Below are positions 4,934 through 32,000 of a stretch of 32,000 bases of DNA, in pieces. The translations under genes and the position numbers were made by a program. Source of the stretch: Mycobacterium leprae TN (lineage in GTDB: Bacteria > Actinomycetota > Actinomycetes > Mycobacteriales > Mycobacteriaceae); contig NC_002677.1 of NCBI RefSeq assembly GCF_000195855.1, positions 2,820,001 through 2,852,000 of the forward strand, given 5' to 3'. Positions within the stretch are counted from its first letter, which is position 1, and each line of letters opens with the position of its first letter. Under the pieces are notes generated by a model. That model was given only the letters and a program-made list of their open reading frames with translations, did no database searches and had not been told where the DNA came from.

Positions 4934-6430
4934 TTACTGAATACTTTGCCTTCGACAGCAACCGATTTGGGCGACATCAGCACGGCACTCAGCGCAGCGA
5001 CGGTCTGCACCCGGTAGACATGCGGAGAACGCTGGAGCGCACGAGCACACTGGCCGCACCGGTACCGTCGGACGACTATCCGGCGAGCAGAGCATGCTGG
5101 GATGGCTAACCTGCTCGAGGTCCGACGCACTCTCGTCAAGGAAGCACCCGCGATGGCAACGAAGAGATGGCCGACAAACGGTTTGGTTTGTGGCCAAGCT
5201 ACCTTGGTGGTGTCCACTCAGTGTTGGGCATTGATCCCGGCGGCAGCACCACAAAATCGAGAACCCAATCCCACGAACAATTTTAATCTCGGTGCAGCAT
5301 GATAGATTGACGCCAACAACGAGAGCAACAAGTTTTCCACATCTTGATTGATCGCTGCTACTGCTTCAACCGGCGTGGAGATCCTTGCCTTGGCTGTTCT
5401 GGCAAAGTTGCGGTCAGCCGGCGCCACTGGGTCCGCATAATCTAGTCCCATATACAGCGGACTTAGCTAGCAGTTCGACTTGTTCGTCGTCAGTGAGCGC
5501 CATTTGCCTATCGTTGTTATACCTAAAAACTATGGCTAACCACGCTGTCAGCCCAGCGGCAGAGTAGGATTACAATCTGTATCTTCAGTGTACTGATGCG
5601 CCACTTGTCCAGGCAAGTTCAGATTGAACCTGTACCCCACTACTATGACACGCGGGCTAGATAGACGCATCTGCCAACATGTTGGCAGATGCGTAAGTGT
5701 TGGCATAACCAATGATCGCATGGCATTGACCGCGTACTCGACAAGATTCCAGTATAATTTGGTTGATCTAGCGCGACGCATCGCCGGGTTGAGTTTTCGC
5801 TCGATTCGACATCGAGCATTAGTACAGCCTGGGGTACAATTCACCTCTAGCACTGAGCATAGAACGCACCGTACCGGCGTTGGCCGACCAATTCGGGCGT
5901 ACGTGAGTGTAAACGATCCCAAAGATCATTCACCCACTGTCCAGTGCGGCAAACACCCAACCATAATCTGGTAGCAAAGTTATGATTATGAGATTATGAT
6001 AGGTGCCGTCGCAAACTCGACTCGAAAGAACCTGATACTGATATGGGCCATTCCACGGGTACTTGATATTCGGCTATGTCAACGAACAAGGTGTCGGTCA
6101 AGTTAGCTCTTTCTCGGCGAACATTTATCTGCCTATTATCGACAATGGCTATCGACTTACGACTGAACAGCAGGATTTTCCTCAAGGTCGAAGCGGGAAA
6201 CCCTTTACGGCGGGACTCGCTAGCATCATTGCTAGGCTAGCGCCGGCGCTCCGCCAGGCAACGTGCTCTTTGGGACGTCCCGTCACGAGCAAGAGCTACC
6301 GATATTGAGCCCCCATCGGGCGGCGACGATTCCATCGTGCACATCAAGGAACGCCATAGCGTCGACTCGGTCGCACGCAGAGACCGGAGCCTGTGCGCGC
6401 CATTCCAGAACCGGGGCTGATCGTGTTGTC

Positions 6431-7100
6431 ATGTGCCGTACTCATGGCAACCCAATCACCGTGCTGGTTATTAACGATGCAGCTGTCCTCGCCGAGTTAA
6501 TGTCGATGACGTTACGCTACGAGAACTGGAACATAGTCGCCGCCCGATAGATCACGGGCGGTCGTGGCAGCTCCGCACGCAGCGACCAGATGTGGCTGTT
6601 CTAGAGGTGATGATACCCGACATGAGCCAGCTCGACGTGCTGCACAAGTTACACGAAGACCACCCCCACTATCGCACGCGGTTAAAGACCGCATCGCTGG
6701 GCTAACTGCAGGCGGCGATGATGTCACTAAACGTTCAGCATCGAGGAGGTTAATGTTGCGGTTACGCGCGGTGCTGCGGTGCATCGGGGTTAAGACGGTA
6801 AACAGCGATGGCGAGGTTGGTGGCCGACAACTTAGTGTTGAACGCGGACAGTCACGCAGTAATGCACGCTGGTCACAAATCTCGTTGACCTCCACCGAGT
6901 TCGAGCTGCTACGATTTACGATGCACACCGCTGAGCGAATATTTGAGCAAGGCTCAGATCCTGGACCGGGTGCGGAGCTACGATTTCGGCGGCCACTCCA
7001 ACATCGTCTAGCTGTACATCTCCTACCTATGGCAAGAAGATAGACAGCAGTCTTAAGCCGATGATCCGCACGCTACGCGGGTTATCCAGCCCGCTAGCGT
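6431..7100 (+). pseudogene. tcrX: OmpR-family two-component response regulator pseudogene (tcrX-like, Rv3765c orthologue by synteny)
   Basis: Receiver-domain start ITVLVINDAAVLAELMSMTLRYENWNIVAAR runs into a stop at 6548-6550. It continues in other frames: DRIAGLTAGGDDVTK, LRLRAVLR, LTSTEFELLRF, ILDRVRSYDFGGHSNIV*LYISYL, IRTLRG. There are at least 2 frameshifts plus an in-frame stop. It is followed by a sensor-kinase remnant and a convergent lpqH remnant, as in M. tuberculosis Rv3765c-Rv3764c-Rv3763. Confidence 0.75.
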
Positions 7101-11199: not shown

Positions 11200-11874
11200 G
11201 GCTGAGAACCTCAAGTGACGTGGATAGCCACCTTGCACTCGGCAACAAATCGGAATACCGACGGTCGATGACCACTCAAGCGGCATAGTCAGTTAATTCC
11301 AGGATTCGAGCCTTCAGGGCCATCCAGATCGTAGTCGACGGTAGCCGCCGCGCTACCGGTATAGCTCAAACTTCTCTGACCTAGACACTGCCGCACAAAC
11401 CCCCACCTTCATGGCCACAGTCAGATCGACAGAAGCTAATTGTAGCCCACCGACAGCACCCAAAACAACAACCGATTCTCCTTGCACGACATGGATAATA
11501 GTCTAAAGGGGACCTCGAAGTTGAGAGCGACCACCGCGGCGAACAAATCCTTGGTGAAGTCGATCAGATTGTCGTAAAGCGGCGACATATCCACGTTGTA
11601 ATCAAGGTATCCACCCTGCCGAAGCACTCGCAAGCTATTTCAACCAAAATCCGTCGATCTGGTCCCAGTGTCCTACTTGCACTTTATAAGCCGCAGCAGC
11701 GCTACCGATTTCGGCCCCAATCTCCTCGGCGGTGGCAATGCATTTATCCATCTTGCGGCTAGCGATAACCCCGCCAGCTCCGCAACGTGCAGCGACAAAA
11801 CCGATTTCGCGTCCCCGTCCGCAGCTGCCACCAGTGATCAATACTACCCGGTAGATGGTACCGAAAGCTGACAT
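11200..11874 (-). pseudogene. Short-chain dehydrogenase/reductase (SDR) pseudogene
   Basis: N-terminus MSAFGTIYRVVLITGGSCGRGREIGFVAARCGAGGVIASRKMDKCIATAEEIGAEIG (Rossmann TGGxxGxG). Stop at 11635, then a frame change into ...YLDYNVDMSPLYDNLIDFTKDLFAAVVALNFEVPFRL. The distal part is not recognisable. Confidence 0.6.
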
Positions 11875-13050
11875 AAATAACCTTATTCGGTGCATCTTGG
11901 TCGGTCGTGACCAGACGAGCTCAGCTGAGGTGGGGATGAGTTGCGGAATCATCGACTCGAAAGTTACGGTGATCTTGACGTCAACTTTGCCGGTTCTTAC
12001 GGCTCCGCGGCGTAGGTCTTCTCCAGATACAATATCAACCTTCCAGTTGTCCAACGCCAGATAGTAGTCTATTTTCTCGACGGAAAACCACCTGACCGTT
12101 TCGGAGCGTTACAGCAACTCGCTGCGAGTTAGCATGCCACGCATGTTCAGATAGACGCCATCGGCGCAGGGGTATTAGCCGTAATAACCCAGCAGATACC
12201 AGAAGAAATCTAACAGCAAGTCACCGATCTTCGTCATCTCCCAGTCCACAATCACTGCCAGTAAAGCCGGAATCCCGTACGCAAACATCACGTTGGCGAC
12301 TAGCGGTCAACTTAACGTTTCATGGAATCCATCGATATGGCGAAAGCCGTCGAGTCCTTAAGCGCGCCAATCCACTCTTCCTAGCTTAGCTGAGCCATAG
12401 ACAAGCTCGAACACCAGCCCGCGACGGGCCCTGCAGAGGTAGATATCAAACGGCGTTTGCTATCCGCAGTCCATCGGGCTCCACCCGTCTACTGCTTGCA
12501 TCACATAGAACGGCATACCGAGCACCGTGTCCGTCTCATCGGCGCGAAACGTCACTGCGCGCCAGAGAACGCCTGTATCAGCCTGATCTTTCGCAACAAG
12601 CCGTCGATACAGCTTGCAGCGGCGGTGTGTACCGGCCATCTAGAGCACCATGCGCGCCACTGCTGGTTTAGGACCTCACTCAATCAAACACAATGTGTTC
12701 TGCGAACAACCCTTTAGTTGTGCCAGCAATAGCTCTTAGCCGCCGCCCGGAGCGCCGTTTTCGTCCAACCACCGACCACACATCCAGCTAGGGCCCGGAT
12801 ACTTGTTGACCATTGTCTACACAACACTCTCCCGATACAGAGACAGAGCATTCTTACTAACGAACTTAGCAGCGCCGACAACCACTATGGGAAGAAACAT
12901 GGAGGTACTCCCGACCCGGCATACGTTACCACTGCGCAACAATACGGTGAGAGCTCCGACCCCGACCTGTCGAATAAAGGCTGGCGTAGGTCGCGGTCTG
13001 CCCGCTGTGGTTGCTTAGTTTACCATAACCCGGGTAGTGATCAGCCCGCA
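11875..13050 (-). pseudogene. Aminoglycoside-phosphotransferase-fold (APH/'FadE-associated' kinase-like) pseudogene
   Basis: Reverse-strand fragments: GMPFYVMQAVDGWSP, VANVMFAYGIPALLAVIVDWEMTKIGDLLLDFFWYLLGYY (Brenner/DWE motif), C-terminal YYLALDNWKVDIVSGEDLRRGAVRTG. Interrupted by stops and frameshifts. Confidence 0.6.
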
Positions 13051-18884: not shown

Positions 18885-19520
18885 GACCCGCAGCGGAGAA
18901 GGCGGCAAAGTAAGTAGCGACATCAATATCACGTTTGTCGGCTTCCAGGGCATAACAAATACTCAAAGAAAAGTTTACCGGTCCACGGCAGGCCGTCAGT
19001 CACCACAACACTCTAGAGAATGTCCACGACACCCCAGCCATCACGTCGACGAGTACGTCGTGGTCTTCTTGGCTGCACAGCGCGAAGTCAACTCCGCAGT
19101 TTCCCATCCGTTACCCCGTGCGCGGACGACGGGGGTCAGGGCGCTGCCTACCTAGATGGTCTAACCGCTGACGAGGGCGCCACGGCTCGGTGCCCATTGT
19201 TCCTGCGGATGTTCGACCTTGAGGCCGATCGCCACAAATAGTAAACGGTAGTCCGGCAACGGCGACGGCATGTTGTTAATCACCAGCGCGCCCGTGTTTC
19301 GATCGCAACGAGCACATCATCGTGGCCGTCCCGGTAGCCTACGAAACAAAGACGGTCCGCACATCCGGGGCCGCCAAGGTCATTCTCGAGGTCGAGATCG
19401 GTGCGGCCAGCAGCGAGGAAGGACGCGGGGCGACATCAACACCCCGGCGGCAAACGTGTCCGGGGTCACTACGATCGTTGCCGCGGCCGCCAATACTGTT
19501 GGACGCCTACGTAACCGGCC
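18885..19520 (-). pseudogene. rskA: Anti-sigma-K factor RskA pseudogene (N-terminal anti-sigma domain apparently deleted)
   Basis: Reverse-strand fragments: RRRPTVLAAAATIVVTPDTFAAGVLMSP (TM segment), PDVRTVFVS*ATGTATMMCSLR / CDRNTGALVINNMPSPLP (compare the RskA extracellular domain 'APDVRTV...[20 protein letters not shown]'), ICYALEADKRDIDVATYFAAFS (C-terminus). It lies immediately downstream of the sigK remnant. Confidence 0.55.
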
Positions 19521-20080
19521 CGACCCCGTATCGGGTTTCACCGCGGCGAGTTTGGCCGCACGAAGCTGTTCCTGCGGTACAGCCGGTGATCGCCGCCCAA
19601 CATTACCGCCATGGTCTCGCGGACGGCTAGAACTTAGTTGGTAAAAGCGGCTGCGTCCCACCGACAACGCCTCCAGGTAGACGAGTTACCCGACAACGCT
19701 CGTCATTGGTCATCGCCGACTAAGGGACCAGGTCGTGCTCCGCGGCGCTGGCCGGGTCTACACTGGCCACAGCGTAATACGATTCCGGCGGCTGCCGGCT
19801 TCTTCGCTGCGCACCCTGTCCGGGAAACACGACCACCGTCTTACCCACCGACACTGCTTGACCCATCACCACGCCAGCGCCCCACTGCCCGCTCTTGTCA
19901 GAGTACTATTCTCACGCCACTCACGACACCTTGTAAGTAGACATCCTGAGTGGTTTCTTCGCTGTAGCCCGAACCACGCAGCGACCGTATCACGGGTCTG
20001 TAGACCCGCGTCTTAATGACAAGATAGCGCGCGACGAGCACGCGCGGTTGTCGGTGCATGAAATATGCCGTTAGCTTTTG
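19520..20080 (-). pseudogene. sigK: ECF sigma factor SigK pseudogene
   Basis: ARYLVIKTRVYRPVIRSLRGSGYSEETTQDVYLQ (compare SigK FAEFYDHTKSRVYGLVMRVLRDTGYSEETTQEIYLE). After frameshifts: GSGALAW*W...VDRVRSEEA (region 2, 'GSALAWL..AHRRAVDRVR') and LEALSVGRSRFYQLSS...PQEQLRAAKLAAVK (region 4). Stops and frameshifts are present. Confidence 0.7.
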
Positions 20081-20084
20081 ATAT

Positions 20085-20700
20085 TTAGGCGCAACCGAGA
20101 CGGTCTTTCATGTACTTATCGGTGAGTTGGTCCCCGCTCAAGTACATCAGGAAATGGGCTATCACCAACGATGAAACCATCCTGGCCAACGATACCCAGC
20201 CGTTGATCGTGCTCGAGTCACAAAACCCACCACACGCAGACGTCACCAAAGTAGTTGGGGTGGAGCGTCCAGGCTCACAGGTCGCGGTCCATAATGAACC
20301 CGGCAATTGGCCGAGTCGGATTAAATATCCGCAGCTGAGAATTCCCGATAACTGTAGCAGTAATGAAACAAATAGCATCAAGAAGCCATGTAAGAGAAAG
20401 ATTCTTTATACCACGTGACCCGCCGCGGCGTCGTGCAACAGGTTGGCGTAGCGTGTCCCCGCGCTCTTGCCAGCCTTCTTGCGGTAAATGAACTAGCTCA
20501 GCCGCAGAGCCCAGGTCGGCGACAGCACTAGCAGCAGCCACGGCGACAAAGCCCAGGTTCCATGCCACATCAATGATGTTGTAGTGCCCCGACCTCCTAC
20601 CGATGGCAAACGTGATCGAATGCACCACCGCCAGCCGCTAACACCGAAACGTTTGCAATCACCCGAATGCCGTCATCGTTCACAACTCCCGCCGCGCGCG
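20085..20700 (-). pseudogene. DUF1295 (steroid-5-alpha-reductase-like) membrane protein pseudogene (Rv0446c-like)
   Basis: ORFs 20275..20628 and 20085..20381 lie in different frames: HSITFAIGRRSGHYNIIDVAWNLGFVAVA, then ...INGWVSLARMVSSLVIAHFLMYLSGDQLTDKYMKDRLG (compare the family end 'sP.lmt.lL..vSG..l.Ek.m..rpgY'). Frameshifted. Confidence 0.55.
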
Positions 20701-21655
20701 AACGTTCACTGGTAGACACCTAGATAACCGACCCAGAAGCCCAACTTCGCATATACCGCGGTACAGATCGTACATCTGCATCTTCTCGACAACCTCGTCG
20801 AAAAACCAAGTGCTCCAATGTATATAGCGGCTACATGAACCTACCCTGCCAGAGTCGCAGAATTTCGGCATGATGCGTACGCAATAGGGTCATATCGACA
20901 GCACGTACCCAGTTGTGTCGCTCGGTGATACCGACGATGGCCTCCGTGAAGGGTGGAAGGACGTCAGAGAAGAAGATGTACTTCGTGAATCCAAAGTGTG
21001 TTGCAAACGGCCAACATCAGTGCGTTCGGCATGGTTATCGCCTTGATCACGAGGTGCGCCTACCAGCCTTTCCAAGGCGTAACAAAATACCGAGCCCATA
21101 CAATGGTATCCACACCGGCGAAACCATCTACTCTTACCGAACGCAGTCTAACACCCCCAACACAATTCTCAACGTTCTAACAACCAAGGACCACTAGAAA
21201 GTCATAGCTTCTATCGACGTCGCGGTACATAGCGTAGGTCAATCTCGACTTGATACGACAACCCGACTATGACGGCACGTTGTCACGTCAGGACACTGCT
21301 GCTTGATGAGTAAGATAACTGAGCGGGCGTAGGCTCCACAAGTGGCCGCGTGTATGCCCAGCCGACCCACCCAATTCCTATTTCGAGCACCTGTCTGGTC
21401 GCTTTTAGACTCCGGCCATATTGAGCAGACGGTTGATCTTGCGTCGTTGAGTCGCAGCCAAATCGCGCCACCGGGATGTTCGAGTTGGCAGTTGGGTTAA
21501 TAACGCGCATGAGTACGTCATGGCCTGGTAGAGAAACTCCACGAACAGATGGTGACAGGCCACCACCAGAAATCGGCTTAACCACAATGTGATTCCCTGT
21601 ATTCGGCTATGCGTCGCCACCGACAACGGTGCCAGCGGTGAAATTATTTGCATGA
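20680..21655 (-). pseudogene. ufaA1: Cyclopropane-fatty-acyl-phospholipid synthase-like methyltransferase pseudogene (ufaA1/Rv0447c-like)
   Basis: Reverse-strand fragments: VINPTANSNIP, RQVLEIGIGWVGWA (SAM motif I 'VLEIGcGWG'), LTYAMYRDVDRSYDFLVV ('dYRDv.g.yDaivS'), HLVIKAITMP ('lQaItm'), C-terminal FDEVVEKMQMYDLYRGICEVGLLGR ('fde.f.RmW.fYL.yceagF'). Several stops and frameshifts. Confidence 0.6.
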
Positions 21656-21658
21656 TAG

Positions 21659-22340
21659 CTACTTGCCGGGTTGTTGTCGGTCGACGCGCAGGCTGGCTAT
21701 AGCTATAGGAGTCGACCGGTGATTATGGTGCAAGGTAACGGTGATGTGGACCTTGCTGTCGGGTTGTGGTGCGTGCACCGAATAAGACCATCCACCTGAT
21801 TGAACGGGGAAACGTAGCAGGCTTTTGCCGTCGCCACAGGCTGGTCGGCTGATGGTAATCAAGTAGTAATAAATTTTAAAATATAGCGTTCACCGTAGGT
21901 ATCGTGCACTTCGCCGACCGAATGGCACATAAGCCCGTCGCGGGCGCGGTATCAAAAGATACGCTCAACGGGGTAAAGACATGCCCGAGTACACGCGCTT
22001 GTCGCAGTGCGGTGATGCGGCCCTCAGGGAACAGCAACCCAGCGGTCGGTGAAGACGACTTTAAGCAATATAGTTCAGCCGAATGGCGTCATCGTCGTTG
22101 TCGGCGATGGCGTCCTGGTCCTCTAAATTCCAGGTGCTGCGCAGAGCGAATGCATAGTAGGTCAACTCGTCCAAGTATCCGAACGTTGCGCTGCCCACCT
22201 GATATTTGCCGTAGCCGGGGTAGTCTCCGCTTTTACCCAACACCCAGGTAGGTTTAGGGCGTGAGCCTGGTGTGCGGGGTGGTGTTGACCGACTGTGTTG
22301 GGTCTGGCAATGAAATATCCGGATTAGCAGCAACAAGCAG
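21659..22340 (-). pseudogene. DUF1365 protein pseudogene (Rv0448c-like)
   Basis: Weak family resemblance in ORFs 22061..22336 (FGYLDELTYYAFALRSTWNLEDQD, compare 'F.Y....wlvDlDel') and 21659..21862, which are in different frames. The call rests mainly on position between the ufaA1-like and mmpL remnants. Confidence 0.35.
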
Positions 22341-22494
22341 TTAGTAGATCAGTTCTTCGGTGGCGTTTAAGCTGAACAAGAACATCACCGAAAGCACCGG
22401 CAAGATGCACGGCGACATTCCGGTAATCAGGCCACTCAAAATCCGATCTAGCGCGATCGTGTGTATAGCTTGCTATGCGGATAGGGTGAGATTA

Positions 22495-23687
22495 CGGGTG
22501 GGCCGCAGCAACCGCGATGGACACCGAGCCCGCGTGGTCACACCAGCTAACAGTTAGTCGCTGTACACCAGGGACCGGTCTGGAGGTAATCCAACCGGAG
22601 CAGCCACGGTCAACAACGGTCGAGTGCGGCCCTGTTGCGGCCACCAGAACCAGCGTCCCAGCAGGGCAGCGATCGAGGGCATCATGAACGAGCGCACGAT
22701 CAACGTGTCGAACAATAGACCCAGACCGATGGTGGTACCCACCTGCCCGATCACCCGCAGGTCGCTGACGACCATGGATGCCATCGTGAACGCGAACACC
22801 AGCCCAGCGTTCGTCACGACTTTGCCGGTGCCGCCCATCGAACGGATGATGCCGGTCTTCAATCCGGCCTGGATTTCCTGTTTGAACCGCGACACCAGCA
22901 GCAGGTTGTAGTCAGATCCTACCGCCAACAGCACGATAACCGACATCGCAAGCACCAGATAGTGCAATTCGATACCGAGAATATGCTGCCAGAGCAATAC
23001 GGACAGTCCAAAGGAGGCGCCTAGTGAAAGCGCGACCGTACCCACGATAACAGCGGCGGCTACAAAGGCTCGAGTAATGATCAGCATGATGATGAAAATC
23101 AGGCAAAGCGATGAAATCCCCGCGATCACGAGATCCCAGTTAGCGCCCTCGTCGATGTCCTTGAAGACGGCCGCCGTACCGGCCAGGTAGATCTTGGTGT
23201 CCTCCAATGGGGTGCCCTTGAGAGCCTCCTCGGCTGCCGTGCGTATCGCGTTGATACTCGCGATACCCGCGACGCTGGCGGGATCCCCCCGATGTAAAAT
23301 AATGAAGCGAGCCGCGTGTCCATCCGATGACAGGAATGATTTCATCGCGCGCTTGAAATCGGTGTTCTTGAAGACCTCGGGTGGAAGGTAAAATGAGTCG
23401 TCATTTTTGGCAGTGTCGAATGCCTTCCCCATCGTATTGGCGTTGTCGCTCAGCTCGTTCATCTGATCAAAGATCCCAGACATTGTGCTGTGCATGGTCA
23501 GCATGATGGTGCGCATGCTCTCCATGCTTTCGATCATCGGCGGGAATTGCTCCAACATCTGCGGCATCAGCAGATCCATGTTTTTGATGTCACCAACGAT
23601 CGAGTTCAGTCTCTCGTCGATCTGGTCCACGCCGTCCAGCGCATCGAATATTGATCGAAATGACCAGCATATCGGAATGTTAAAACA
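22495..23687 (-). repeat. Left arm of a 1193-bp perfect inverted repeat (mmpL4 3' 1134 bp + 59 bp downstream)
   Basis: Reverse complement of 28573-29765 (paired coordinates sum to 52260). I compared about 250 nt base by base at both ends. Every six-frame ORF inside the arms is letter-identical between copies: the 388-aa main frame, and 22624..22911=29349..29636, 22912..23106=29154..29348, 23126..23323=28937..29134, 23194..23391=28869..29066. Confidence 0.95.
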
Positions 23688-24899
23688 TGGTATGTTGTGG
23701 TCGGTCTCGATCATTAGCAATTTTGGCTTTATCCGGGCCTGGGAAAAATTCCGGGCAGTGTCGGTAGATTCGATTTTCTCGTGGTGCTTTTAGGAAAATA
23801 ACAGAAATTGTCTTAATTAGTCTTGTACCCAAGCAAATAGAGCAATTCGATAAGAGCAATCACGACAGACATAGCAAGAATTTGCTCAGGCTAACGGTAC
23901 CCACCTGTGGCCATCCACGGGTCCGCAACTTCCGTTTGGGTCTAATAAATGGAAAACTGTCGATAGTAAGGACGGCTCACTTCACCGTGGTCGCCGAGAT
24001 CATGACGACCAGCATTCCTACGGAGCACAGCAAGCCGAGCGTTCGGAAATAGGGCAACCGGGTGAAGCAGAGGCAGTACATAGCATCGGTTATGGTCAGA
24101 CCCGAACCGATGGCAACGTGCGCAGTTCCATGGAACATGGTGTAGAAAGTTTTTCCCCGTCCTTACCGAGAGTGCGTGCCTCTTGAGACCATCTAAGGAC
24201 TAATAGTGCATAGTCAGCTCACGGTTCAATGGCCAGCGGTACAAGCAGATTTACCGCTAAGGTTGTGATAGTCCAATGGTGTTATTATAAGCTGAAAAAT
24301 GATACCTTGCCGGGCCACCATGAGCTCAATTACCACCATCACGAGGGTCAGGTTCACCTGAACAACAGAACAGTAGACAAAAAGCAACATAACAATGTCC
24401 ACTAGGAAGGTGATCATCGTGACTTGTTGAACCCTGTGCTCACCCGCCGTTGACTGATCGGCACCGGCTGGAACCGCACCACCGATCATGTAGGCCTTGA
24501 TGTCCGACAGCGCCGGCGTGCCGTTCACGATTTGTTGGACAGACTCGTTGGCTAAGTTTTTGCCCTGGTTACTGGCCAGATACATTTGCACATAGACCGC
24601 TTGATTGTCCGAGCTTTGCGACCCGGCCACCGTCAATGGGTCCTCCAGCAGTTTTGTGACGTGCTGAGTCTGCTTTTATCCACCAAGACGTCCGGATTAA
24701 CTCGCTGTATTATTTATTATCGTGGTGGGTCTCATCGTCAATCTGTTTTGTCGTCTTTTAGGACGATAATAATAGCACTGTCGGTGTTGAACTTATTGAA
24801 CATTTGGCTGGCCCGCTTCATCGCCTGCATGGCCGGTGTATCGTTGGTGGTCATTGATACCGTATGTTCTTTTCCGACGGTTGTGGCACGGGTTTACCG
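22554..24899 (-). pseudogene. Second mmpL-family RND transporter gene, mosaic pseudogene: decayed 5' two-thirds joined to a pristine 3' third identical to mmpL4
   Basis: Reverse-strand fragments with stops and frameshifts: VGKEHTVSMTTNDTPAMQAMKRASQMFNKFNTDSAIIIVLKDDKTD* (compare MmpL4 [45 protein letters not shown]); ORF 24226..24636 (AVYVQMYLASNQG...); [34 protein letters not shown]; LRTRGWPQVGTV; [12 protein letters not shown]. It lacks the first roughly 48 codons and about 400 bp equivalent to mmpL4 28172-28572. From 23687 downstream it is identical to mmpL4. Confidence 0.85.
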
Positions 24900-25210
24900 A
24901 CGGAAAGTGTTGTGGTCGACCGAAAGCGTCCAGGGCAGCGTCGGATTAACTTACCCGTTACAGTTGGGCATATATATATATATATATATTGGCGTTGGCC
25001 ACAGTACTGGCGGGGCCATAAAATTAGTGGACTAAGTGTTTGGTATTAAACGGCTGGGATGTCAGCGGAAAGCCATTGGTAACCGCCTTGTTGTCGTGAA
25101 AGTAAAAGAAGAAGCTGCGGAGCAGATAAACACCGAACTCCATTACTGCAACCACGATCACGATCCGCACTTCTCGCTCCGCGACAGCAACCGGAATCTT
25201 GGCCACTCAA
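24900..25210 (-). pseudogene. mmpS-family pseudogene (partner of the decayed mmpL), 3' part deleted
   Basis: ORF 25024..25206: VRIVIVVAVMEFGVYLLRSFFFYFHDNKAVTNGFPLTSQPFNTKHLV (compare MmpS4 here: [27 protein letters not shown]...[14 protein letters not shown]). Further down, PTLPWTLSVDHNT (compare [12 protein letters not shown]). It then fuses directly to mmpL-like sequence. Confidence 0.65.
24970..24989. repeat. (AT)10 dinucleotide microsatellite
   Basis: atatatatatatatatatat read directly from the sequence, inside the mmpS pseudogene. Confidence 0.95.
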
Positions 25211-25399
25211 TCGTCTTTCACTTATTTGGCGCCCCATTGCTCGTGCGACCGCTTTAACCATCGTTTGCCCCCGCATTGGCATCAGCCGAAACCGTTCCTG
25301 TCCCAGATAAGAAAGCCCGCTAAAATGCCCCTCACCTGAACGTCGCACAAGGCACCGGTGGTCAACGTCCATTTGCTTCGCCACAGCACAACGTCTGTT

Positions 25400-26079
25400 T
25401 CTGCTCACTGCGATTCGGCGATGAGGCCAAGGCAAGTAGCAGTGAGAAATCGAGTCAGCGCTGTGGCAAAGTCAAGGTTTCACTCGGATGGGAGGATCTC
25501 CGGTTATCCGGCATAAGCGTCAGTGAGCTGCTCTGGGGGTGCGCGATTTGCCACACGGTAGCCGCCAGAGAACAGGCAGCCAGCAAGTATGTCTAATGCA
25601 CCCGAACGCCCGAGCACGGGCAACATGTTGCTGGATTGCGTACGCCAAGGTAATCACGGCAGTGGTACTGGCCCACTTGACCTCGACGTCCACTTCGTGT
25701 TCAAGATGCAGTGCAGATTGGCGAGCAAATCGCAGAACAGCGCCCAGGACGTTGGCCAACGTCTCAGCGATCCGCGATGGTGACCTCGGACCGGATTTCG
25801 CCGACGTTTCACACACCGTATTCGACCAACGTATCCCACCCTCGGCGGCGAGGTATAGCAGTACTTCATTTATATTTATAGTTTATGTTTATAAGAGGTG
25901 AAGTAGCGACGCACCGCGGAGTAATGAATTCCGGCATGGCCGGCGTCAGCAGTCAACGTCACCGAAGTCACACCGGTCTCAAGCGCCAGTGGGCATGCGG
26001 TTTCCACGACCGCGGCCGGCCGTTGACGCTTGTTTCCCTCGGTACGGGAGCGCTGGAACGTAAGTTGTGCCACCACCAT
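25400..26079 (-). pseudogene. TetR-family transcriptional regulator pseudogene, divergent from mmpS4 (Rv0452-like)
   Basis: ORF 25876..26079 contains the TetR HTH region (RPAAVVETACPLALETGVTSVTLTADAGHAGIHYSAVRRYFTS) and then stops. The C-terminal-domain-like ORF 25520..25816 is in a different frame. There is therefore at least one frameshift plus a stop. Confidence 0.7.
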
Positions 26080-26365
26080 AGGAATAATTCACAGAATGTG
26101 ATTTGCATAACGCACGGGCATGATTTGCCAGCGGCACAGCAGTGCGCCGTTACGCATGATATATGCGTTACTCTTTCCAAGAGCCCGGCAGGAAGGAAGC
26201 AACAAGGCCCCGTGATTTACTTTGGCAAGACTTGATTGTACTCCGGCCCAAACGCCTTCGGTTCGAACCGACCATCACAAAGGTGTGGCGATCTGAGCTT
26301 GTGGTCCGGGTAGTCCGGCACCACGATCTGAAGTTGAACTTGGTCGAGCGGACATCGGGCCGTCA
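26080..26365. promoter_or_regulatory. Divergent control region between the TetR pseudogene and mmpS4, with operator-like palindromes
   Basis: AATTCACAgaaTGTGATTT (26086-26104; 7 of 8 arm positions pair) starts 7 bp upstream of the TetR start codon. ACGCATgatatATGCGT (26152-26168) has 6-bp perfect arms. No promoter hexamers assigned. Confidence 0.3.
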
Positions 26366-26830
26366 ATGTCCAAACGCCAACGGGGTAAGGGGATTTCAAT
26401 TTTCAAGCTGTTGTCACGAATTTGGATTCCACTTGTCATCCTTGTGGTGCTCGTGGTTGGGGGATTCGTAGTGTACCGTGTCCACAGTTATTTCGCCTCC
26501 GAGAAACGCGAATCCTACGCAGATAGCAACCTGGGAAGCAGCAAGCCGTTCAACCCCAAGCAGATTGTTTACGAGGTCTTCGGCCCACCCGGAACGGTTG
26601 CAGATATCAGCTATTTCGATGCTAATTCCGACCCCCAGCGAATCGATGGGGCACAATTGCCATGGTCGTTACTTATGACCACGACCTTGGCCGCAGTGAT
26701 GGGAAACCTCGTGGCTCAGGGCAATACTGATAGTATCGGCTGCCGGATCATCGTGGACGGCGTAGTCAAAGCTGAGCGAGTTTCCAACGAAGTCAACGCC
26801 TACACCTACTGCCTGGTGAAGTCCGCGTGA
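26366..26830 (+). CDS. mmpS4: MmpS4 accessory protein of the MmpL4 RND transporter
   Basis: Intact 154-aa ORF: [26 protein letters not shown]...[44 protein letters not shown]...[41 protein letters not shown]. Near-colinear with my recollection of M. tuberculosis MmpS4. Its stop overlaps the mmpL4 GTG start (GTGA, 26827-26830). The N-terminal about 15 aa may be an over-extension. Confidence 0.9.
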
Positions 26831-29706
26831 CGGTCAAATGCGCGAACGACCTGGACACCCACACCAAGCCACCGTTCGTCGCAAGGATGATCCACAGATT
26901 TGCGGTACCGATCATCTTGGTATGGTTAGCCATTGCCGTCACCGTTAGTGTCTTTATCCCATCACTAGAAGACGTTGGGCAAGAGCGTTCAGTGTCGCTA
27001 AGCCCTAAGGACGCACCGTCGTACATTGCGATGCAGAAGATGGGTCAGGTCTTCAACGAAGGAAACTCCGACAGTGTAATAATGATCGTCCTGGAAGGCG
27101 ATAAGCCGCTCGGTGACGATGCTCACAGATTTTACGATGGCCTGATTCGCAAGTTGCGGGCAGACAAGCACGTGCAAAGCGTTCAAGACTTTTGGGGGGA
27201 TCCTCTTACCGCGCCCGGCGCCCAAAGCAATGACGGTAAGGCCGCCTATGTCCAATTGAGTCTAGCGGGTAACCAAGGTGAGTTGCTGGCTCAAGAATCC
27301 ATCGATGCGGTCCGCAAAATCGTCGTGCAGACGCCTGCGCCTCCCGGAATAACGGCTTGGGTCACTGGAGCGTCAGCCTTGATCGCGGACATGCATCATA
27401 GTGGCGACAAATCCATGATCCGGATCACCGCAACGAGTGTGATCGTGATTTTGGTGACGTTGCTGCTCGTCTATCGATCGTTCATCACCGTGATTCTGCT
27501 GCTTTTCACGGTCGGGATCGAATCGGCGGTGGCGCGGGGAGTCGTCGCGTTGCTCGGACATACCGGGCTCATCGGTCTGTCCACCTTCGCGGTGAATCTG
27601 CTCACATCCTTGGCCATCGCGGCGGGCACTGACTACGGGATATTTATCACTGGGCGCTACCAGGAGGCCCGCCAGGCCAACGAAAACAAAGAAGCGGCCT
27701 TCTACACTATGTACCGGGGAACTTTCCACGTCATCTTAGGCTCTGGGTTGACAATCTCCGGGGCGACGTTTTGCCTCAGCTTCGCCCGGATGCCCTATTT
27801 CCAAACTTTGGGTGTCCCGTGCGCGGTGGGGATGCTCATCGCCGTGGCGGTCGCACTCACCCTCGGACCGGCGGTGTTGACGGTCGGCAGCCGTTTCGGT
27901 CTGTTTGAACCCAAAAGGCTGATCAAGGTCCGTGGCTGGCGACGGATCGGCACCGTGGTGGTCCGCTGGCCGCTGCCCATTCTCATCACCACCTGCGCTA
28001 TCGCCATGGTCGGTCTGCTGGCTCTGCCCGGATACCGGACTAACTACAAGGACCGGGCGTATCTTCCTGCGTCCATCCCCGCCAACCAAGGATTTGCCGC
28101 CGCGGATCGCCATTTCCCACAGGCCCGGATGAAGCCCGAAATTTTAATGATCGAGTCGGATCATGATATGCGAAATCCGGCCGACTTTTTGATCCTGGAC
28201 AAGCTGGCCAGGGGAATCTTTCGTGTTCCAGGAATTTCCCGGGTCCAGGCGATAACCAGACCCGACGGAACGGCAATGGATCATACTTCGATACCATTTC
28301 AGATAAGCATGCAAAATGCCGGACAAGTACAAACCATGAAGTATCAGAAGGACCGGATGAATGACCTTCTAAGACAGGCAGAAAATATGGCCGAAACGAT
28401 TGCTTCGATGAGGCGTATGCATCAATTAATGGCGTTGCTCACAGAAAATACTCACCACATTTTAAACGACACTGTAGAAATGCAAAAAACTACCAGCAAG
28501 TTGCGTGATGAAATAGCTAATTTTGATGATTTCTGGCGACCGATTCGTAGCTATTTCTACTGGGAAAGACATTGTTTTAACATTCCGATATGCTGGTCAT
28601 TTCGATCAATATTCGATGCGCTGGACGGCGTGGACCAGATCGACGAGAGACTGAACTCGATCGTTGGTGACATCAAAAACATGGATCTGCTGATGCCGCA
28701 GATGTTGGAGCAATTCCCGCCGATGATCGAAAGCATGGAGAGCATGCGCACCATCATGCTGACCATGCACAGCACAATGTCTGGGATCTTTGATCAGATG
28801 AACGAGCTGAGCGACAACGCCAATACGATGGGGAAGGCATTCGACACTGCCAAAAATGACGACTCATTTTACCTTCCACCCGAGGTCTTCAAGAACACCG
28901 ATTTCAAGCGCGCGATGAAATCATTCCTGTCATCGGATGGACACGCGGCTCGCTTCATTATTTTACATCGGGGGGATCCCGCCAGCGTCGCGGGTATCGC
29001 GAGTATCAACGCGATACGCACGGCAGCCGAGGAGGCTCTCAAGGGCACCCCATTGGAGGACACCAAGATCTACCTGGCCGGTACGGCGGCCGTCTTCAAG
29101 GACATCGACGAGGGCGCTAACTGGGATCTCGTGATCGCGGGGATTTCATCGCTTTGCCTGATTTTCATCATCATGCTGATCATTACTCGAGCCTTTGTAG
29201 CCGCCGCTGTTATCGTGGGTACGGTCGCGCTTTCACTAGGCGCCTCCTTTGGACTGTCCGTATTGCTCTGGCAGCATATTCTCGGTATCGAATTGCACTA
29301 TCTGGTGCTTGCGATGTCGGTTATCGTGCTGTTGGCGGTAGGATCTGACTACAACCTGCTGCTGGTGTCGCGGTTCAAACAGGAAATCCAGGCCGGATTG
29401 AAGACCGGCATCATCCGTTCGATGGGCGGCACCGGCAAAGTCGTGACGAACGCTGGGCTGGTGTTCGCGTTCACGATGGCATCCATGGTCGTCAGCGACC
29501 TGCGGGTGATCGGGCAGGTGGGTACCACCATCGGTCTGGGTCTATTGTTCGACACGTTGATCGTGCGCTCGTTCATGATGCCCTCGATCGCTGCCCTGCT
29601 GGGACGCTGGTTCTGGTGGCCGCAACAGGGCCGCACTCGACCGTTGTTGACCGTGGCTGCTCCGGTTGGATTACCTCCAGACCGGTCCCTGGTGTACAGC
29701 GACTAA
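26827..29706 (+). CDS. mmpL4: MmpL4 RND-family inner-membrane transporter (siderophore exporter in M. tuberculosis), 959 aa, intact
   Basis: Uninterrupted 959-aa ORF with MmpL hallmarks throughout: [141 protein letters not shown]. Translationally coupled to mmpS4. Confidence 0.93.
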
Positions 29707-29765
29707 CTGTTAGCTGGTGTGACCACGCGGGCTCGGTGTCCATCGCGGTTGCTGCGGCCCACCCG
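28573..29765 (+). repeat. Right arm of the 1193-bp perfect inverted repeat (3' 1134 bp of mmpL4 + 59 bp downstream)
   Basis: See the left arm. Inner boundary: identity starts at TGTTTTAACATTCCGAT (28573); the preceding bases differ (right ...gacat, left rc ...tacca). Outer boundary: identity ends after ...GCGGCCCACCCG (29765); the next bases are gtggttcatgc on the right versus taatctcaccc on the left rc. Confidence 0.95.
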
Positions 29766-29879
29766 GTGGTTCATGCACTGCCGCTGCCCAGGAATGAGAA
29801 AATAGCCGGCGCCGCAAACACCGGTCGACTCCTGGCAGCCATACTGCACTAATGACGGTAAGTGCGGTTAAAAACCATG

Positions 29880-30350
29880 TCAGCTGGCTAACCGCACGGT
29901 GTTGCGAATGATGTCGCGCAGCTCGTGCAACGGCGCCCCGCACGTCAAACAATATGCACCCCGGTGGCGAGTCAGTTTGCTGACCTGCCGCAGCACGACG
30001 AGCCTGAGGCTGCGCACACAGCAGAGGCACAAGATGTCGACGATGTTTCCGCCCAGGTCCAGATTCGGATTGCTGCATTCATCTACGGCGTGCCGGTGCA
30101 CGATATGGGTAGCCGGATTGGTGCAGCCCGCTTCCGATTGGCACGTGAGCTGATGCCAATCGAGGGAAGCAAGCGTGTCCGGGATCTTGTTACCAGGTAC
30201 TTGGCTCATGTGACAAGCATTGTCTCGCCCGCACCAAGCTGCATCGGCGCGGAGCCGGTCGTGATTCCATAACCGATAACTGTGATGAGCACGATCTAAA
30301 TCCTCACGGTAAGCAGTTCGGCAAGCGCACCAAGGCATGATAACTGCCAC
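29880..30350 (-). CDS. Hypothetical Cys/His-rich protein (156-aa ORF; a 109-aa version from ATG at 30209 is equally possible)
   Basis: Uninterrupted ORF with high third-position GC (about 75% by my count from Met48 onward), which is coding-like for this genome. Cys/His pattern: CQSEAGC...HIVHRH..DEC...CLCC...YCLTCG. I cannot assign a family from memory. Confidence 0.45.
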   Translation of the reverse strand: MAVIMPWCACRTAYREDLDRAHHSYRLWNHDRLRADAAWCGRDNACHMSQVPGNKIPDTLASLDWHQLTCQSEAGCTNPATHIVHRHAVDECSNPNLDLGGNIVDILCLCCVRSLRLVVLRQVSKLTRHRGAYCLTCGAPLHELRDIIRNTVRLAS

Positions 30351-30482
30351 TTCTTCCTGCCGACCCGGCGGGCTCGCGCCGCCGAATAGCTTAATTTAGA
30401 TTATCCTCCTATTGGGCATTGGGGGACAACACGAATCGGTCCGACTCGGCGGGTAAAGCGCCAAATCGCGACTAGAACAGGA

Positions 30483-30944
30483 CTACGGCCAGTTCCACAC
30501 CGACATGTCTCCGGCCTGGTACTGGTTGCAAACCTCGGTGGCTTTGGCGACAACGCCCTTGTTATTGAAGAAAATCTTCGCCCAGTTTCCCCAATGCGTG
30601 GCCATCTGCTCGTAGTAGACGTTTGTAGCGGTGTCCTCGGAATACTGCCTACGGTCGGTGGGGCTCAAGGAATAGAACCAATGGATACGATTGACCGCGG
30701 CCTGCTGGATGTCAGTCGGCTTGTTGTGCATATCGATCATGTACCGCTGGTAGTAGATCGGGCTGGTATCCCTGACGGCCGCCAAATACTGCTCTGCATC
30801 ACAGGTGGTGGCGATTTGCCTGCGGGGGATCGGAAAATCCTCCGTGGAACCATCGGCAACGGCGGTCGTCGGAAATGCCACAGGAATGATACCGAAAACG
30901 AGAAAAACAGCACCTTTACATAGGCTGGTGCTCAGCCGAGACAT
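30483..30944 (-). CDS. Secreted/periplasmic protein homologous to M. tuberculosis Rv0455c (required there for siderophore secretion)
   Basis: ORF 30483..30995 trimmed to [30 protein letters not shown] (signal peptide). Mature part: [44 protein letters not shown]...[31 protein letters not shown]. This matches my recollection of Rv0455c almost block for block. Intact. Confidence 0.8.
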
Positions 30945-30999
30945 GGTGATTAACCGTAACCCTTTCGGGGTTTTGAAGTAGTGCTTCGACAGCAAGTTA

Positions 31000-31944
31000 C
31001 TAGTCTAGGCTTACGAGCCAGCAGGAACAATAGACATGTTGAGGGGTCCGGCCGTAGTTTGGGTACGGCTTGGCTGTAATTGTCGAACGGGCCGTCTCGG
31101 CGTGCGATCACGATCCGTACCCCTTGGGTTTCGGTGGCGCGGATCAAGTCGAGCGCGTCGGGATGTTGCGCGTCAGGCCATCCAGAATGCCACCTAGCAT
31201 CTGGGTAGACGCTAGGTTCATGTATCTCGCAAGCGGCCTGATTAACGATCAGGCTTAGTGCCCACAACTGCGACAATGAGGATGCGTACCAGCTCGGCAG
31301 CAATCTCGGTGACACAAGCTTAGAGGCATTCGAACGGCACCTATTCGTTTATCAGCTTGACTTCAGCTTCCTGGACACCGGTCAACGGCCGGCCAGTAAG
31401 CGGGTGCCACTTGACATTGGCAAGGCCGAGCAAGCATATTTATGCTTTCAATTAGATAAGCTCTATATCCGATTATATGGGTGCCGATCATCGCGTTGTT
31501 GTCGGTAATGGCGATGTCAGTGCATTTGCGTAGTTGCTGAAAATCAGCGACGCATCAGTTTTGCGCCTAGCGATCATCGGCTTAGAGGCTAGTTAAATGG
31601 CCATGAACCTCTCTATAGGCCGAATCTCACGAGCGGTAACTCTAGCGAACTCTTTGCCTGGATACCATTGCCTGTAGGTCATCAGGCCATCGCCCCCGTT
31701 GCTGAAACCCGCCGCCAAAATTATAGCCGTCAGAAAAGGACTGGCTGGCGCCACGCAACACTATAGACTTTGATACCGTGGTCTCGCTCAGCCAGCCTGC
31801 CGATCGTCTCGATCTTGTCGAGAATAGGTGGGACGTTAATATAGTATTAAGGTGCTCTGAGCTATCCAATGTGATGGTGGCGACCGGACCGGTGGCCGCA
31901 TAATGCAGGCTATCAAAATTGACCCCGGATTGGGTTCTAGTCAT
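31000..31944 (-). pseudogene. echA2: Enoyl-CoA hydratase/isomerase-family pseudogene (echA2/Rv0456c-like)
   Basis: ORF 31642..31944: FDSLHYAATGPVATITLDSSEHLNTI...IVLRGASQSFSDGYNFGGGF (crotonase N-terminal pattern), then a stop. The C-terminal-like ORF 30950..31315 (...GVRIVIARRDGPFDNYSQ) is in a different frame. The middle part is not readable in one frame. Confidence 0.55.
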
Positions 31945-32000
31945 AGCAGCAGCGAAGTAAGTCGGGACCCTTGCCGCGATATGCTGCGCGAGTCAGCCCC

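Follow-up and report, generated by a model that had tools for sequence, protein, structure and literature searches.

A perfect inverted repeat at mmpL4 of Mycobacterium leprae: probable origin from inverted paralogues and recurrent homogenisation of its arms

The genomes of the leprosy bacilli are generally regarded as clonal and decaying, with no recombination. In a stretch of 32,000 nucleotides from Mycobacterium leprae TN (NC_002677.1, positions 2,820,001 to 2,852,000; hereafter the window, to which all positions refer unless another record is named), the 3' end of the transporter gene mmpL4 is present twice, as the two arms of a perfect inverted repeat, one belonging to the functional gene and the other fused to the remains of a decayed paralogue. 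The question that this locus raises is how such a fragment came to be, and has remained, identical to part of a gene that is under selection. The answer in which I have good confidence is that the repeat originated from two inverted paralogues and has been maintained by recombination from arm to arm.

The repeat and its identity in two leprosy bacilli

A repeat search, conducted over positions 20000-32000 and over the whole 32-kb window, returned arms at 22495-23687 (minus strand) and 28573-29765 (plus strand), each 1193 nt long, 100% complementary and 4885 nt apart, as the sole repeat in the window with a length of at least 60 nt. The initial annotation had described the arms as exact reverse complements, and the pairwise search found no mismatch between them. 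Chance cannot account for a perfect match of 1193 nt, which is far beyond it. The same search detected a second, weak pair (24001-24147 and 27700-27846, 70%), which is the old paralogy of two mmpL 5' halves. Each arm contains codons 583-959 of mmpL4 (1134 nt with the stop codon) and the 59 non-coding bases that follow, identical left and right, and translates to an MMPL domain (PF03176, E = 9e-108). As the arms hold the 3' end of mmpL4 including its stop codon, the same MmpL4 of 959 amino acids (aa) is encoded in either orientation of the segment between them, the spacer, in agreement with what had been claimed from the sequence at first sight.

A repeat like this could be an assembly artefact, with arms that were collapsed or duplicated, or with a spacer that was mis-oriented in the reference. 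Short reads cannot resolve an exact repeat of 1.2 kb; short-read assemblies collapse the arms, so that exact arm-arm identity is not independently readable from them, and M. leprae contigs from such assemblies break exactly at the arm ends, at 22495 and 29765 (L081 corresponds to 22495-29765). The M. lepromatosis reference, FJ924, was moreover obtained by aligning short reads to a template from M. leprae, and 12 gaps flanked by repeats were closed by the polymerase chain reaction (PMC9248898). However, the independently sequenced strain Br4923 (L089) shows the same structure and the same orientation as the window, and all four junctions (left flank to arm, arm to mmpL' pseudogene, mmpL4 5' part to arm, and arm to right flank) recur in this strain and in the de novo contigs of more than ten other, independently assembled M. 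leprae samples. In addition, the open reading frame (ORF) over the left junction was deposited separately under the cosmid-style name u1740ab (AAA63000.1), presumably from independent cosmid sequencing, and on both sides of each arm the flanking sequence can be traced to a clear ancestral homologue, a different one in each case. An artefact is on these grounds extremely improbable.

M. lepromatosis FJ924 (L007) has a 100% repeat of its own, of 915 nt, at 5599-6513 and 11699-12613. Over the 867 nt that are shared by the two species, 48 positions differ (5.5%), and every one of these differences is found in both arms, while the arms differ by 0% within M. leprae and within M. lepromatosis. When polarised with M. 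haemophilum, 23 differences are derived in M. leprae and 24 in M. lepromatosis, with one ambiguous; third codon positions hold 35 of the 48. Counting substitutions only, the divergence between the species amounts to 5.5% in the arms, 7.3% in the 5' part of mmpL4, 7.7% in mmpS4, and 16-18% in neighbouring pseudogenes, including the very mmpL' 5' half that is joined to the left arm. For the arms, the ratio of nonsynonymous to synonymous divergence (dN/dS) is 0.09, compared with 0.14 for the 5' part of mmpL4. The left arm, nominally the pseudogene copy, evolves at the rate of a functional gene and not at that of a pseudogene. Beyond the arms the identity ends abruptly: in M. lepromatosis it is 46-65% in two 150-nt segments just inside the repeat. 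M. leprae has lost this part of the left copy, and what is left of its 5' half shows 41-62% identity.

The number of differences to be expected was modelled for the time since the two species separated, with the left arm drifting as fast as the pseudogenes and the right arm as fast as the gene. Without homogenisation, approximately 135 arm-arm differences are expected in M. leprae and approximately 100 in M. lepromatosis; none is observed in either. Poisson reasoning on the divergence rates would place the last homogenisation in each lineage no further back than roughly 2-3% of the time that has passed since the species separated. A single random event that recent in both lineages is very unlikely, which argues that homogenisation was recurrent. 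As a pattern in these sequences, recurrent arm-to-arm recombination over evolutionary time, on a scale of millions of years, is demonstrated; its mechanism I infer.

Alternatively, the arms could be kept identical by purifying selection on two proteins, MmpL4 and a half-transporter of 386 aa, rather than by recombination. An open frame of that length, starting with ATG, does run over the left junction and has a counterpart of 397 aa in M. lepromatosis, and transcription has been reported for every pseudogene of M. leprae (PMC8790229). Synonymous and non-coding sites are identical too, so protein selection cannot explain the identity of the arms: the third-position changes are all in both arms, and the 59-nt tail is the same on either side. 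Nor is the ATG of the left ORF preceded by a Shine-Dalgarno-like motif, and a promoter and terminator scan of 21500-30500 gave counts level with those in shuffled sequence, with no promoter above chance. I give next to no credence to selection as the cause; the 386-aa frame is probably an untranslated by-product, kept open by conversion.

For genomes regarded as free of recombination, these patterns amount to sequence-level evidence that intrachromosomal homologous recombination has been active in both leprosy bacilli throughout their divergence, and that a pseudogene fragment can be spared decay when conversion tethers it to a selected gene.

Origin of the arms and inversion of the spacer

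In M. haemophilum (L085), an uncultured relative (L086), M. simulans (L008), M. innocens, M. szulgai and M. uberis (L001, L087), the locus has the ancestral order. Read in the direction of mmpL4, it starts with echA, DUF5078 and orf109, followed in opposite direction by mmpL', mmpS' and a TetR gene (mmpL' and mmpS' being the paralogues of mmpL4 and mmpS4), and then, again forward, by mmpS4, mmpL4, a DsbD-like gene, (PE/PPE), an amine oxidase gene, DUF1365, CMAS, DUF1295, sigK and rskA. The two divergent operons, mmpL'-mmpS' and mmpS4-mmpL4, are also arranged around TetR in about 30 other mycobacteria, and the paralogues are 64-72% identical over approximately 3 kb. Judged from the sequences compared, the repeat appears to be a recombination product of these ancient inverted paralogues, mmpL' and mmpL4 (~70% identical), with a homogenised 3' part, and not a fresh duplication.

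Both arms are of the mmpL4 type, with a p-distance (proportion of differing sites) of 8% to M. haemophilum mmpL4 and of 29% to its mmpL'; at the protein level, the left arm is 93% identical to M. haemophilum MmpL4 and 71% to its MmpL'. Residual mmpL' sequence was looked for within the arms, and just 3-4 matching sites were found, which is compatible with chance. The flanks tell the two arms apart. Outside the left arm, 22353-22494 and the sequence beyond are homologous to what lies downstream of mmpL4, where the DsbD-like gene begins, in M. haemophilum, M. uberis and M. lepromatosis. This continuity marks the left arm as the original, a 3' end of mmpL4 at its ancestral position that is now fused to the decayed 5' half of mmpL'. 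Behind the right arm come the last ~92 bp of mmpL' (29766-29857, plus strand), which identifies this arm as the copy; it supplies the functional mmpL4 with its 3' 1134 nt, extends 59 nt further downstream, and replaces the 3' part of mmpL'.

The ends of the copied tract differ in character. At the outer junction, between 29765 and 29766, the 59 nt beyond the mmpL4 stop codon are joined to mmpL' at 92 bp before its stop, with an imperfect microhomology, CCCACCCG/CCCGTCCG, that matches at 6/8 positions; window positions 29763-30600 match M. haemophilum L085 5010-4171 at 85.6%, and the mmpL' stop lies at L085 4918. This junction is out of register by approximately 90-150 nt, which, together with the short microhomology, points to an illegitimate end. 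The inner junction survives only in M. lepromatosis, where the sequence passes from the mmpL' type to the mmpL4 type exactly in register, within a block of approximately 56 nt, GATGATTTCTGGCG-CCGATTCGTAGCTA-TACTGGGAAAG, that is near-identical between both M. haemophilum paralogues. An in-register junction in such a block argues for a homologous event. From the mmpL' pseudogene of M. leprae, an in-frame deletion of approximately 0.4 kb (the gap corresponding to 28174-28572) has removed this inner junction together with the innermost 48 bp of the ancestral repeat. Local deletions have trimmed the repeat in both species: M. leprae lost sequence on the inner side of the left copy and retains 1193 nt, whereas M. 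lepromatosis lost sequence on the outer side of the right copy and retains 915 nt.

The illegitimate character of the outer junction is what break-and-fill-in models predict, and a one-step inversion with staggered breaks could have made the repeat with no part played by homology, the arms being identical as they are very recent. However, the inner junction is exactly in register in the most conserved block of the paralogues, and the structure is old, given that the arms are 5.5% apart between two species and 0% within each. A staggered-break origin is accordingly highly unlikely.

The segment between the arms (23688-28572, 4885 nt) lies inverted with respect to both flanks, relative to all outgroups. 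In the outgroups, mmpS4-mmpL4 point in the same direction as both flanks, that is, the side from the DsbD-like gene to rskA and the side with echA and DUF5078. In the window the directions disagree, mmpS4-mmpL4 being on the plus strand and both flanks on the minus strand; the inner order mmpL'-mmpS'-TetR-mmpS4-mmpL4 is unchanged, and it follows that a segment reaching from the middle of mmpL' to the middle of mmpL4 has been inverted. The breakpoints are inside the arms: next to the left arm lies the region that ancestrally followed mmpL4, and next to the right arm lies the tail of mmpL'. The initial annotation had proposed this inversion from the gene order of M. tuberculosis, and the closer outgroups M. 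haemophilum, M. simulans, M. uberis and L086 uphold it.

The simplest history would consist of one copy event, initiated by homology and terminated at a microhomology, and one crossover. Once the lineage to M. leprae and M. lepromatosis had separated from M. uberis and M. haemophilum, a tract of 1.24 kb from the 3' end of mmpL4, with the 59 nt past its stop codon, would have replaced the equivalent part of mmpL' in that lineage. A crossover between the two copies would then have inverted the 4.9-kb spacer, with the repeat as the likely cause of the inversion, leaving the original mmpL4 3' end on the left fused to the dying 5' half of mmpL', and the functional 5' part of mmpL4 on the right joined to the copied 3' end. 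Since then, intrachromosomal homologous recombination, presumably dependent on RecA, would have homogenised the arms repeatedly in both species, with non-crossover events resulting in gene conversion and crossovers in inversion. The left arm would thereby have been held to the slow rate of a functional gene under purifying selection, and later local deletions have shortened the repeat in each species.

Several points weigh against parts of this history. No junction is common to both species, as M. leprae has lost the inner one by deletion and M. lepromatosis has lost the outer one in the same way, and a single origin rests on parsimony for that reason. The inversion may predate or postdate the perfect repeat. 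The role of RecA, whose gene lies outside the window, is presumed. The orientation of the spacer in M. lepromatosis is not independent evidence, as FJ924 was guided by an M. leprae template, and small differences between its arms could have been collapsed. Lastly, that both orientations coexist today is a prediction.

The first of these points is also what would favour two recent copy events, one in each species, with no long-term concerted evolution, as one junction has been lost per species by deletion. Two events would, however, require the same donor, the same recipient and the same architecture twice, both times recently, while a tract of such high identity is present in none of the approximately 30 other species that have the same pair of paralogues, an absence that favours one origin in the ancestor of the leprosy bacilli. 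Moreover, the inner junction in M. lepromatosis is displaced inwards from the end of the M. leprae arm by just 48 nt, at the place of the secondary deletion in M. leprae, and even two copy events would require recurrent recombination between both genes. I regard this alternative as quite unlikely and retain a single origin with recurrent homogenisation as the preferred reading.

Orientation of the spacer and mmpL4 of M. lepromatosis

The right arm of M. lepromatosis is cut short by a 367-bp deletion that corresponds to window positions 29440-29806 (L007 12601-12613). The deletion is located at an imperfect direct repeat of 11-12 nt, GGCACCGGCAAA/GGCGCCGCAAA, and leaves the junction GGCACCGGCAAA followed by CACCGATCGG. 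In the deposited orientation mmpL4 is consequently an ORF of 888 aa that misses the last 88 residues. The left copy (L007 5332-6525, minus strand) retains the complete 3' end, and when the 5' part of mmpL4 is joined to this copy, as in the product of an inversion, the result is an ORF of 2880 nt with 959 codons, without stops or indels and collinear with M. leprae mmpL4.

Three readings of this observation are possible: mmpL4 was recently truncated in M. lepromatosis, the ancestral orientation is the true or predominant one, or both orientations coexist. An error of orientation or annotation in the M. lepromatosis reference at mmpL4 is thus possible, and the annotation of a truncated protein of 888 aa may be wrong, given that a flip of the spacer yields an intact gene of 959 codons. 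The hypothetical full-length MmpL4 of M. lepromatosis and the ORF over its left junction had no exact match in a look-up in the protein collection, in which the 888-aa FJ924 protein is the sole M. lepromatosis entry.

For M. leprae, eight short-read contigs cross an arm, of which seven, all Logan contigs, have the reference configuration and connect the mmpL' pseudogene through the arm to the left flank, and one, L098, is flipped. The latter is a Logan contig (ERR1883821) of 1595 nt that links the mmpL' pseudogene side, a complete arm and the right flank. It is most likely an artefact of graph traversal, as de Bruijn contigs with k=31 carry no linkage over 1.2 kb. I rejected de novo contigs as evidence of orientation altogether, because the junction k-mers are the same both ways and the repeat is crossed only where branches are lost through low coverage or tip clipping. 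Flip-flop would nonetheless be expected for a perfect inverted repeat of 1.2 kb in a cell with homologous recombination, and both orientations may coexist today.

It is a further and rather doubtful step to regard the locus as an active, functionally relevant invertible structure, serving as an ON/OFF switch in M. lepromatosis (or there reflecting a mis-oriented reference) and as a repair palindrome in both species. If this were true, the orientation of the spacer in M. lepromatosis would determine whether MmpL4 is made at full length or in truncated form, the right arm being without the last 88 codons, and the switch would operate by homologous recombination; alternatively, the reference would be mis-oriented and an intact gene mis-annotated as truncated. 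In both species, the repeat would then resemble a Y-chromosome palindrome, a template for the repair of half of one of the few surviving MmpL transporters in a non-recombining, decaying genome.

The repeat also has practical consequences. The initial annotation warned that short reads cannot be placed uniquely in this part of mmpL4, and this is borne out for the 3' 39% of the gene: in mmpL4, a candidate efflux and virulence gene, reads from the last 1134 nt map ambiguously, and a variant in one arm would show at an allele frequency of approximately 50%.

Genes of the locus and comparison with known systems

The initial annotation listed for the spacer a decayed mmpL'/mmpS' pair, a TetR pseudogene, mmpS4 and the first 1746 nt of mmpL4, and ORFs, Pfam domains and the mapping of M. 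haemophilum proteins match this content. Both divergent promoter regions are within the spacer. mmpL4 (ML2378, 26827-29706, plus strand) is intact and encodes an RND/MMPL transporter of 959 aa (PF03176, E = 8e-229), its 5' part inside the spacer being 26827-28572. The ORF is an exact match to MMPL4_MYCLE (CAC31894.1; TN, Br4923 and Kyoto-2), is 91% identical to M. haemophilum MmpL4, and has related entries named 'siderophore exporter MmpL4'. It overlaps by 4 nt with mmpS4 (ML2377, 26366-26830, plus strand), which is likewise intact (154 aa, PF05423) and 93% identical to M. haemophilum MmpS4, without stops. With a length of approximately 960 aa, two MMPL domains, an overlapping mmpS ahead of it and synteny with Rv0450c/Rv0451c, the pair is recognisable as an MmpL4/MmpS4 RND transporter operon, and ML2377/ML2378 have been equated with Rv0451c/Rv0450c (PMC6300501). 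In M. uberis, mmpL4 is intact (962 aa), mmpL' is a pseudogene with its own diverged 3' end, and mmpS4 (L001 9540-10001) has a stop in the alignment and 140 aa as its longest ORF.

The Rv0452-like TetR-family regulator between the operons (25408-26082, minus strand) is a pseudogene, with 50% identity to the M. haemophilum TetR protein and 5 stops in the alignment; its counterpart in M. simulans carries TetR_N and TetR_C_34, and the gene is disrupted also in M. lepromatosis and M. uberis. With this regulator disrupted, mmpS4-mmpL4 are probably expressed without a local TetR repressor. The remnant of mmpS' (24931-25200, minus strand) is 55% identical to M. haemophilum MmpS' and has 3 stops. Of mmpL', the spacer holds only the 5' half (23688-24878, minus strand), with at least 5 stops and a nucleotide identity of 75-86% to M. 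haemophilum mmpL' and 50-62% to its mmpL4. An (AT)10 microsatellite at 24970-24989, inside the spacer, varies across M. leprae samples, with 10 copies in the window, 9 in L090, 8 in Br4923 and 7 in L081 and L082; it is perhaps the typing locus known as (TA)10.

The ORF over the left junction, u1740ab, occupies 22554-23714 (minus strand, 386 aa). RefSeq has instead a protein of 377 aa that starts at the first arm codon (CFNIPICW) and is named 'MMPL family transporter, partial', and the cluster members P0123-P0128 are all M. leprae fragments.

To the left of the repeat lie remnants of the DsbD-like gene (22064-22466, minus strand), the ancestral downstream neighbour of mmpL4, which cover aa 1-37 and 405-505 of the M. 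haemophilum protein. M. leprae has lost approximately 1 kb of this gene, and also the PE/PPE and amine oxidase genes that come after it in M. haemophilum; in M. lepromatosis (L007 3857-5248) the DsbD-like gene is decayed and nearly full length. Further out, at 19233-22065 on the minus strand, M. haemophilum protein mapping and Pfam identify pseudogenes of rskA, sigK, DUF1295, a CMAS/ufaA1-like gene and DUF1365. The last of these, the Rv0448c-like ML2373 (21561-22065, minus strand), is reported to be the most highly transcribed M. leprae pseudogene in mouse footpads (PMC8790229). It is directly downstream of the left arm on the minus strand, with only the DsbD-like remnants in between, and its transcription could be read-through from the de-repressed mmpS'/mmpL' promoter or, if the spacer is flipped, from mmpS4-mmpL4.

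On the right flank, behind the mmpL' tail, orf109 (29883-30209, minus strand) is an intact conserved ORF of 109 aa, 89% identical to its M. haemophilum homologue and without stops; no Pfam family is recorded for that homologue, and orf109 in M. lepromatosis carries a stop. It is convergent with the right arm, and in the present orientation read-through from mmpL4 would be antisense to it. It is followed by an intact, Rv0455c-like DUF5078 gene (30486-30944, minus strand) and an echA pseudogene (31028-31944, minus strand).

While systems of this general kind are already known, the origin of the repeat from an inverted paralogue pair, the recurrent homogenisation in two species and the likely problem in the M. 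lepromatosis mmpL4 reference are new. An earlier description of the repeat was not found in the searchable literature, although a mention in the original genome paper is still possible. The locus offers a natural assay for rates of inversion and conversion in an uncultivable pathogen.

Other explanations were considered and rejected. The arms are 1.2 kb of coding sequence, and not the repeats of tens of nucleotides that belong to site-specific invertible switches (invertons, shufflons). A recombinase or mobile element within the spacer is rejected too, as the mmpL', mmpS' and TetR pseudogenes, mmpS4 and the 5' part of mmpL4 make up the entire spacer, in the same order as in M. haemophilum and without any further gene. 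Nor do the arms belong to a dispersed repeat or insertion sequence (IS) family of M. leprae (RLEP, REPLEP, LEPREP, LEPRPT), as they are MMPL coding sequence, orthologous to the 3' end of mmpL4 elsewhere, with the copy number as read within the window. These dispersed repeats have been connected with rearrangements by homologous recombination (review PMC12035532, citing Cole et al. 2001). As with them, recombination between repeats would explain here a break in gene order with respect to M. tuberculosis; unlike them, the present repeat is two-copy and gene-derived, neither dispersed nor IS-derived.

The tufA and tufB genes of Salmonella and other enterobacteria are inverted duplicates that evolve in concert by gene conversion, which depends on RecA, and the segment enclosed by them can become inverted. 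In both cases the inverted copies are (near-)identical within a species and diverge between species, and recombination can result in conversion or inversion. In contrast to tuf, only the 3' 40% of the gene is repeated here and one partner is a pseudogene fragment, the spacer measures 4.9 kb instead of hundreds of kb, and the host has a decaying, clonal, obligate intracellular genome.

Gene conversion from arm to arm and flip-flop isomers are also familiar from the palindromes of the human Y chromosome and the large inverted repeats of plastids. The (near-)perfect arms with sharp edges, the higher identity within than between species and the non-recombining or clonal genome are shared with the M. 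leprae repeat. However, plastid spacers are found in both orientations, whereas one orientation is read here, and the arms at mmpL4 are part of one gene, on a kilobase scale, and not gene families.

The sap locus of Campylobacter fetus undergoes RecA-dependent inversion between the conserved ends of oppositely oriented sapA homologues. There, as the sequences suggest for mmpL4, homologous and not site-specific recombination acts at the conserved parts of inverted paralogues around a segment of several kb. In sap, however, the 5' ends are conserved, a single promoter is located in the segment and flipping changes the protein, whereas at mmpL4 the 3' ends are shared, the segment contains both promoters, and M. 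leprae encodes the same product in either orientation.

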